Assembly: GCF_055900595.2 (NCBI RefSeq)
Contig: NZ_CM148325.1
Direction: 5' to 3' (one strand)
Length of the DNA stretch: 64,000 bases
A program made the translations under genes and the position numbers. Shown here piece after piece: positions 10,478-11,017 of this stretch (the stretch's first letter is position 1; the number at the start of each line of letters is the position of its first letter). The notes beneath the pieces were generated by a model. The model did no database searches, was not told the DNA's origin, and saw nothing but the letters and a program-made list of their open reading frames with translations.

Positions 10478-10508
10478 GAGTTCCTGTCTTAAGCCACTTG
10501 CCGAAGTC

Positions 10509-10525
10509 AATTGGTCTTACCAATT
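10509..10525. promoter_or_regulatory. PdhR operator (perfect palindrome AATTGGTCTTACCAATT)
   Basis: 17-bp inverted repeat seen at 10509-10525, 32 nt upstream of the pdhR start codon; matches the known PdhR box architecture. Confidence 0.65.
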
Positions 10526-11017
10526 TCATGTCTGTGACGCTAAAGTAACAAAGTATTCACCTTATGTCCATACAGGTTTTGATTGAAATCATGAAACTGT
10601 GCACATTTTAACAACTTGACATATATAACGTTTCAAAGTTGTAACTATGCACAAATGTAGACTTTACGTAGGAAAGGAATTTTTTAACGATTATTAAACT
10701 ATAAAAATCCGAATTGAACCGATTCACTTACCAATTTATCGGTTTTTAATTCAATAAAATTGAATTTATATTCATTTTGTATGTTGAGGGGATTTGAGGC
10801 TGACCTTTACAAACGGTTCCTTTTTAAGCAACTCATCTTCAACCATGCATAAAGCGGGTGCATTCGCTGCCGCATACCATTATTCTTTATCTGACGGAAG
10901 TCCTTTTGTAACAATTCAAACGCCTTTGATGTAAACAAATTAATACAACAAACGGAATTGCAAACTTACACACGCATCACTGCGTAGATCAAAAAAACAA
11001 TCACCGCACGAGGTTTC

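Follow-up and report, generated by a model that had tools for sequence, protein, structure and literature searches.

The aroP-pdhR spacer of Escherichia coli as a conserved control region shared by two divergent transcription units

The operator bound by PdhR at the pdhR-aceEF-lpd promoter reportedly goes back to the work of Quail and Guest (1994/1995), and footprinting of the aroP region is said to have been published by Wang, Yang and Pittard (1997a, 1997b, 1998) and by Yang (1999). ArgR operators consist of two 18-bp ARG boxes (consensus wnTGAATwwwwATTCAnw) that are located 2-3 bp apart. On the pdhR side of the K-12 spacer, Anzai et al. (2020) found the strongest PdhR gSELEX peak at K-12 position 122052, on the sequence AATTGGTaagACCAATT, which matches the consensus at 14/14 positions (PMC7660256); in the literature, the PdhR box is cited as lying 11 bp from the pdhR +1. 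Myers et al. (2013) predicted an FNR site, ATGATTTCAATCAA, at K-12 121977 under a ChIP-seq peak, located at -50.5 and with the operon being repressed (PMC3688515), and Park et al. (2013) reported two ArcA sites, i.e., a proximal site at K-12 122007-122027 (-27 to -7) and a distal site at K-12 121868-121888 (PMC3798270). A Cra ChIP-exo study found that pdhR-aceEF-lpd is repressed, with a site described as "downstream of two promoters", and also reported activation by CRP (PMC5888115). Upstream of the aroP promoter, ArgR binding was seen by Cho et al. as a double peak-pair in ChIP-exo data (PMC4381063). Sigma70 ChIP peaks are located at K-12 122035 for pdhR and at K-12 121650 for aroP.

For aroP, Podlesek et al. 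(PMC7142922), in relating the work of Wang, Yang and Pittard, describe a major promoter P1, a second promoter P2 located 21 bp downstream and a divergent promoter P3 that overlaps P1. According to these authors, P3 is activated by TyrR, and P1 is closed to RNA polymerase by the polymerase that has been recruited to P3, a mechanism that is also given in PMC3167631. They further describe the strong TyrR box as located upstream of the divergent P3 and the weak box as located on the aroP side, and they cite EMSA and footprints for the binding of TyrR to the K-12 and Salmonella bongori spacers. The -10 hexamer of P3 is TGGTAT in the mutant table of Podlesek et al. (PMC7142922). By definition, TyrR boxes are strong if at least 10 of 12 positions match and weak if fewer match, with G-N14-C being essential (PMC4374768). 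The small RNA GcvB represses aroP to 13.6% through R1 (PMC11878033), and the aroP-pdhR interval has already been described as an insertion hotspot (PMC7142922).

We analyzed the corresponding spacer in a stretch of DNA of 64,000 nucleotides (the window; contig NZ_CM148325.1 of RefSeq assembly GCF_055900595.2). The window is from E. coli; the 901 bases around the spacer matched one E. coli chromosome at 100% identity, and 5,423 complete E. coli genomes almost all showed 95-99% identity. A preliminary description, made from the sequence alone, had placed a 540-bp AT-rich spacer between the divergent genes aroP and pdhR and had reported a PdhR operator and a candidate TyrR box within it. Genes, layout and both sites were correctly named, and the boundaries and the composition were confirmed as well: the pdhR ATG is at 10477 (minus strand) and the annotated aroP ATG is at 11018 (plus strand), the equivalent K-12 interval is 121552-122091, and GC content ranges from 0.27 to 0.37 across 10500-10850 as compared to 0.5-0.6 in the flanking genes. 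GenBank and RefSeq records contain no features in the spacer. As the window runs opposite to K-12 numbering, published coordinates were converted using the formula window position = 132569 - K-12 coordinate. A PdhR-based scan using one genome per species yielded 80 loci; aroP and pdhR were divergent neighbours in 78 species (Enterobacteriaceae and Serratia), with spacers of 524-653 bp, and phylogenetic footprints were obtained from a MAFFT alignment of these 78 spacers.

In our assessment, it is very likely that the spacer is a control region which two divergent E. coli transcription units have in common and that it functions as published. The positions of the motifs, their uniqueness and their conservation across the family were observed here, and protein binding as well as regulatory effects have been demonstrated by others in K-12. 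The features located in the spacer and at its borders are listed in Table 1.

Table 1. Window coordinates of control elements and candidate elements in the aroP-pdhR spacer
Feature	Position	Strand	Details
aroP-pdhR divergent spacer	10478..11017	.	540 bp, AT-rich; from ORFs, RefSeq annotation and composition
PdhR operator AATTGGTCTTACCAATT	10509..10525	.	7-bp arms, 3-bp centre; ~+11 to +27 of pdhR transcript
pdhR core promoter	10535..10570	-	TSS ~10535; -10 TACTTT (10547..10542); -35 TGGACA (10570..10565)
ArcA site "pdhR2" AGGTGAATACTTTGTTACTTT (pdhR-strand sequence)	10542..10562	-	Overlaps -10 and promoter spacer
FNR site TTGATTGAAATCAT	10579..10592	.	Centred at -50.5 of pdhR; palindrome centre 10585.5
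Conserved block (G)CACATTTTAACAA	10601..10614	.	~-70; phylogenetic footprint
Conserved block TGTAACnnTGCACAAATG	10640..10657	.	~-112; phylogenetic footprint
ArcA site "pdhR1" TAGTTTAATAATCGTTAAAAA (pdhR-strand sequence)	10681..10701	-	-167 to -146
Cra (FruR)-like palindrome TGAACCGATTCA	10715..10726	.	Near-perfect, TGAAnCGnTTCA-type
Tandem ARG boxes (putative ArgR operator)	10738..10776	.	Weak box 10738-10755; perfect box ATTGAATTTATATTCATT 10759-10776; 3 bp apart
Divergent aroP P3 promoter	10874..10902	-	-10 TGGTAT (10879..10874); -35 GACTTC (10902..10897); overlaps P1 (+)
Probable aroP P1 -10 TATTCT	10881-10886	+	
Strong TyrR box TGTAAACAAATTAATACA	10930..10947	.	10/12 to TGTAAA-N6-TTTACA; G-N14-C
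Weak TyrR box CGGAATTGCAAACTTACA	10953..10970	.	8/12; G10954 and C10969
Candidate GcvB R1 pairing site in CA-rich aroP leader	10955..10981	+	AAUUGCAAAC = perfect 10-mer complement
aroP Shine-Dalgarno CACGAGG and two in-frame ATGs	11007..11023	+	Shine-Dalgarno 11007-11013; ATGs 11018 and 11021

The PdhR operator showed no mismatches to AATTGGTNNNACCAATT, was the single such site in 64 kb and had no counterpart in any of 100 shuffled sequences. It also agreed with the box definition AATTGGTnnnACCAATT (core GGTnnnACC) at 14/14 positions and was present in all 78 species, with the alignment showing invariant arms and three variable central bases. While the site had been described as a perfect 17-bp palindrome at exactly 10509-10525, only the position can be retained; the central CTT is not self-complementary and the palindrome is thus limited to the 7-bp arms (i.e., 7+3+7 rather than a perfect 17-mer). 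The PdhR peak at K-12 122052 converts to window position 10517. We also observed a direct repeat of CTTACCAATTT, which forms the right half of the PdhR box (10516-10530 and 10726-10740, approx. 210 bp apart); as other species do not retain the second copy, this repeat probably reflects chance.

Scanning of positions 10400-11100 with sigma70 and terminator consensus sequences yielded no matches, a result we attribute to the real promoters being too weak, and the hexamers were therefore placed from published offsets. The offsets of FNR (-50.5) and ArcA (-27 to -7) both give a pdhR TSS at window position 10535, and the sigma70 peak at K-12 122035 converts to 10534; the -10 and -35 hexamers of pdhR were read off the sequence by counting from this derived TSS. 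With the TSS at approx. 10535, the PdhR box falls at approx. +11 to +27, in agreement with the cited distance of 11 bp. The converted K-12 coordinates for FNR and ArcA land exactly on conserved blocks. The sequence TAAAGTAACAAAGTATTCACC, which covers the promoter and the proximal ArcA site, was identical in 78/78 species, the proximal ArcA site being invariant across the aligned species; for the distal ArcA site, the species alignment showed conservation of the TTTAAC and GAAAC repeat elements. The FNR site, which coincides with the published site at K-12 121977, matches the TTGAT-N4-ATCAA-like consensus at 9/10 positions, and its core TTGATNNNNATCA was retained in 77 of the 78 species. In this arrangement, a weak sigma70 promoter (TSS approx. 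10535) would be blocked by PdhR bound at +11 to +27 until pyruvate frees the operator, anaerobic shutdown of the operon would be brought about by FNR (site at -50.5) together with ArcA (proximal site at -27 to -7, distal site at -167 to -146), and Cra and CRP would add carbon-source control.

Two conserved blocks, (G)CACATTTTAACAA at 10601-10614 and TGTAACnnTGCACAAATG at 10640-10657, showed no match among the retrieved published coordinates for PdhR, FNR, ArcA, ArgR, Cra and TyrR. One possible, though rather unlikely, explanation is that both blocks are operators for a further pdhR regulator, which could be CRP (at approx. -70 and -112) or some factor for which no link to the operon has been described so far. 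Across genera, the two blocks show the same degree of conservation as the known sites, and they share a 14-nt direct repeat with a distance of 48 bp (formed by the 10640-10657 block and 10592-10605). CATTTTAACA was found in 53/78 species, and the footprint of TGTAACnnTGCACAAATG was present in Enterobacteriaceae but not in Serratia. Moreover, activation of pdhR by CRP has been reported (PMC5888115), and in E. coli the block (G)CACATTTTAACAA is part of a CRP-like sequence, TGTGCACATTTTAACA (10598-10613, approx. -70.5), which scores 8/10 to the CRP core. On the other hand, the left half of TGTGCACATTTTAACA is not conserved outside Escherichia, and a CRP site at 10598-10613 was rejected for this reason; in addition, pdhR was not recovered by CRP genomic SELEX, the ChIP-exo study puts CRP at the -35 region and not at -70 (PMC5888115), and the blocks may well be assigned already in RegulonDB or EcoCyc. 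The narrower proposal that both blocks are operators of a regulator new to the pyruvate dehydrogenase operon appears improbable.

The middle of the spacer was variable between species, with two motifs persisting, i.e., the Cra-type palindrome and an ARG box. The Cra-like sequence TGAANCGNTTCA was retained in 71/78 species and was absent from Serratia; the palindrome at 10715-10726 may be the site detected by Cra ChIP-exo. The right ARG box is perfect to the ARG box consensus, and the left box matches at 7/10 positions in the window and is better in K-12. An ARG-like box was found in 57 of the 78 species, with a tandem partner being present in 34 of those 57. We infer that the tandem ARG boxes correspond to the ArgR ChIP-exo peak upstream of aroP; in the proposed scheme, ArgR would bind at these boxes, farther upstream than TyrR. 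A covarying hairpin at approx. 10748-10776 (ATkCA-N7-TGmAT) was also considered and was rejected, as the junction of two ARG boxes located 3 bp apart yields this same pattern and as ArgR binding upstream of the aroP promoter has been published.

Alternatively, a gene for a small RNA or a small protein, such as a product of the divergent P3 transcript, could be hidden in this long spacer. P3 is oriented toward pdhR, and no product of it is known in K-12, where the promoter is termed "nonproductive" (PMC7142922); the length of the spacer is conserved, 140 bp of it are nearly invariant, and a few short ORFs on the minus strand were "intact" in 61-69 of 77 species. However, these "intact" ORFs are all located in the invariant promoter DNA upstream of the pdhR TSS, have TTG or GTG starts and lack a codon-like substitution pattern, while ORFs in variable DNA were broken in nearly all species. 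The promoter, together with the FNR and ArcA sites known from the literature, accounts for the invariant DNA itself, and the segment downstream of P3 (approx. 10668-10847) has been replaced wholesale in the aligned strain that carries the PAIusp island. Among 19 ORFs with at least 12 codons tested, none was conserved outside invariant DNA. An Rfam search of positions 9500-12500 (E ≤ 10) gave no match in the spacer, and the four candidate transcripts that were folded, i.e., the leaders of aroP and pdhR, the P3 transcript and the central repeat, had ordinary energies (z of +0.5 to -1.1 as compared to shuffles). These data agree with the preliminary description, which had found no ORF or RNA to be evident, and make a hidden gene in the spacer very unlikely. 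The same description had suggested that the spacer might host unannotated regulation; this is accurate insofar as the GenBank records are blank there, but control by PdhR, TyrR, FNR, ArcA, ArgR, Cra, CRP and GcvB has been published extensively. The sole real Rfam match in 9500-12500 was a full-length match to tp2 (RF02030; 9555-9668, plus strand, 103 bits, E of 2e-19), which lies outside the spacer, between pdhR and aceE, and is antisense to the operon.

Approximately 1,060 of the 5,423 E. coli genomes (about a fifth) did not show a contiguous match across the spacer. In one aligned strain (L084), the segment corresponding to approx. 10668-10847 is replaced by the PAIusp island of several kb. 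In addition to IS elements and the imu immunity genes, the island contains usp, which is annotated as tssD and represents an Hcp-nuclease fusion; the aroP-proximal 170 bp of this strain represent a divergent allele with 84% identity. By annotation alone, strain CFT073 (L002) carries a related insertion with an IS3 transposase, immunity genes and a gene with an HNH motif. In Superficieibacter sp. 1612_C1 (locus L058, 520-2500), the spacer is approx. 1,980 bp as compared to approx. 540 bp, and the extra DNA includes ORFs of 195 and 158 aa that resemble, by eye, an Hcp-like protein and a pyocin-like fragment. This extra DNA resembles the decayed remains of a usp-type insertion, here at the same site but in a different genus.

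With regard to the aroP promoters, the P3/P1 overlap TAyCAyTATTCT was retained in 74/78 species, and the aroP sigma70 peak at K-12 121650 converts to window position 10919; the exact P1 and P2 hexamers are predicted. A windowed duplex scan with GcvB R1 identified two equally good regions, one within the leader (10955-10981) and one within the first codons (11022-11049), both in the top 0.1% of window positions. Folding of full-length GcvB/leader duplexes was uninformative, with results no better than those for shuffles. In the proposed scheme, repression of the aroP leader by GcvB is the single post-transcriptional layer, and one that was already known. The aroP Shine-Dalgarno sequence and the second ATG (11021) were conserved in all genera, and the first ATG (11018) was missing in Klebsiella, Enterobacter, Kluyvera, Pluralibacter and Serratia. 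Position 11021, rather than the annotated one, is probably the true aroP start, as the second ATG is universal and located 7 nt from the conserved GAGG. In Klebsiella/Raoultella loci (L066 and L070-L076), the interval from the weak TyrR box to the aroP Shine-Dalgarno sequence is longer by approx. 100 bases, with the extra bases aligning between window positions 10990 and 11000; the aroP leader is thus much longer in these genera.

The TyrR-like motif upstream of aroP is located exactly where it had first been noted (10930-10947), but the match count given for it, 9/12, was wrong, as two mismatches correspond to 10/12. With at least 10/12 matches and G-N14-C, this candidate is a strong box under the published definition (PMC4374768). 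Its invariant pair, G10931 and C10946, was retained at the aligned position in 78/78 species, and the box is found 88 bp upstream of the aroP ATG, a location that is also upstream of the P3 -35 and agrees with the published layout (PMC7142922). The weak box, which had been overlooked, is offset by 23 bp from the strong box, i.e., by about two helical turns. An alignment-free scan found two G-N14-C boxes at an offset of 22-24 bp in 76/78 species, and in the 78-species alignment the half-sites of both boxes were conserved while their N6 centres drifted. In the published deletion series, shortening from the aroP side loses the weak box first, which indicates that the weak box is aroP-proximal (PMC7142922). 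A literature search using the exact box sequences gave no matches. The secondary description, the motif definition and the conservation together argue strongly that 10930-10947 is the footprinted strong box and that 10953-10970 is the weak box. TyrR, together with an aromatic amino acid, would bind the strong box and, cooperatively, the weak box, both of which are located downstream of the aroP start sites; TyrR would then recruit RNA polymerase to P3 and, through the overlap of P3 with P1, polymerase would be excluded from P1.

Although the spacer has a GC content of 27-37% and TyrR patterns occurred at or below expectation (15 as compared to 22 expected for ≤ 3 mismatches; 2 as compared to 1.97 expected for ≤ 2 mismatches), the reading of the TyrR-like sequence as a functionless chance match in AT-rich DNA is extremely improbable and effectively refuted, as the half-sites and G-N14-C were retained in 78 species while the six centre bases varied, a second box is located 22-24 bp away in 76/78 species, and TyrR binding to and TyrR-dependent regulation of the region have been published (PMC7142922, PMC3167631). 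With pattern counts at the level of chance, the case for a functional TyrR operator rests on position, conservation and the literature; the conservation of the paired boxes rules out a chance match and indicates that the arrangement is ancestral.

Overall, nearly every conserved block in the spacer corresponds to a published binding site, and the aroP-pdhR spacer is among the better-mapped intergenic regions of E. coli. The substance of the finding was already known; it is correct but ordinary and carries little weight as a discovery. The first motif calls were upheld, with one match count corrected and a second TyrR box added. The map across 78 species confirms that the K-12 architecture (PdhR, FNR, ArcA, paired TyrR boxes and the P3/P1 overlap) is ancestral to Enterobacteriaceae.

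Compared to the K-12 spacer, the window spacer is of equal length and shows 96-98% identity, with approx. 20 differing positions, several of which are located inside the left ARG box. Every published PdhR, FNR and ArcA coordinate for the pdhR-aceEF-lpd promoter of K-12 maps onto window sequence, and the DNA from the pdhR ATG through 10679 is identical to K-12 except for one base change (at 10679) adjoining the distal ArcA site. The differences between the window and K-12 cluster at 10738-10805, a segment that covers the ARG boxes and extends into the DNA on their right, and, as compared to K-12, the left ARG box of the window is weaker and the right ARG box is stronger. In the aroP region, the strong box, the weak box, the P3 -10 (TGGTAT) and the P3 -35 (GACTTC) are identical in K-12 and the window; single bases differ at 10903, immediately upstream of the P3 -35, and at 10922-10923, in the interval that separates P3 from the strong box. 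The PAIusp-bearing spacers of B2/uropathogenic E. coli and Salmonella bongori share the flanking genes, P3 and the TyrR boxes with the window; in PAIusp strains, however, P3 drives the genotoxin gene usp, whereas the window spacer carries the same divergent promoter without the island.
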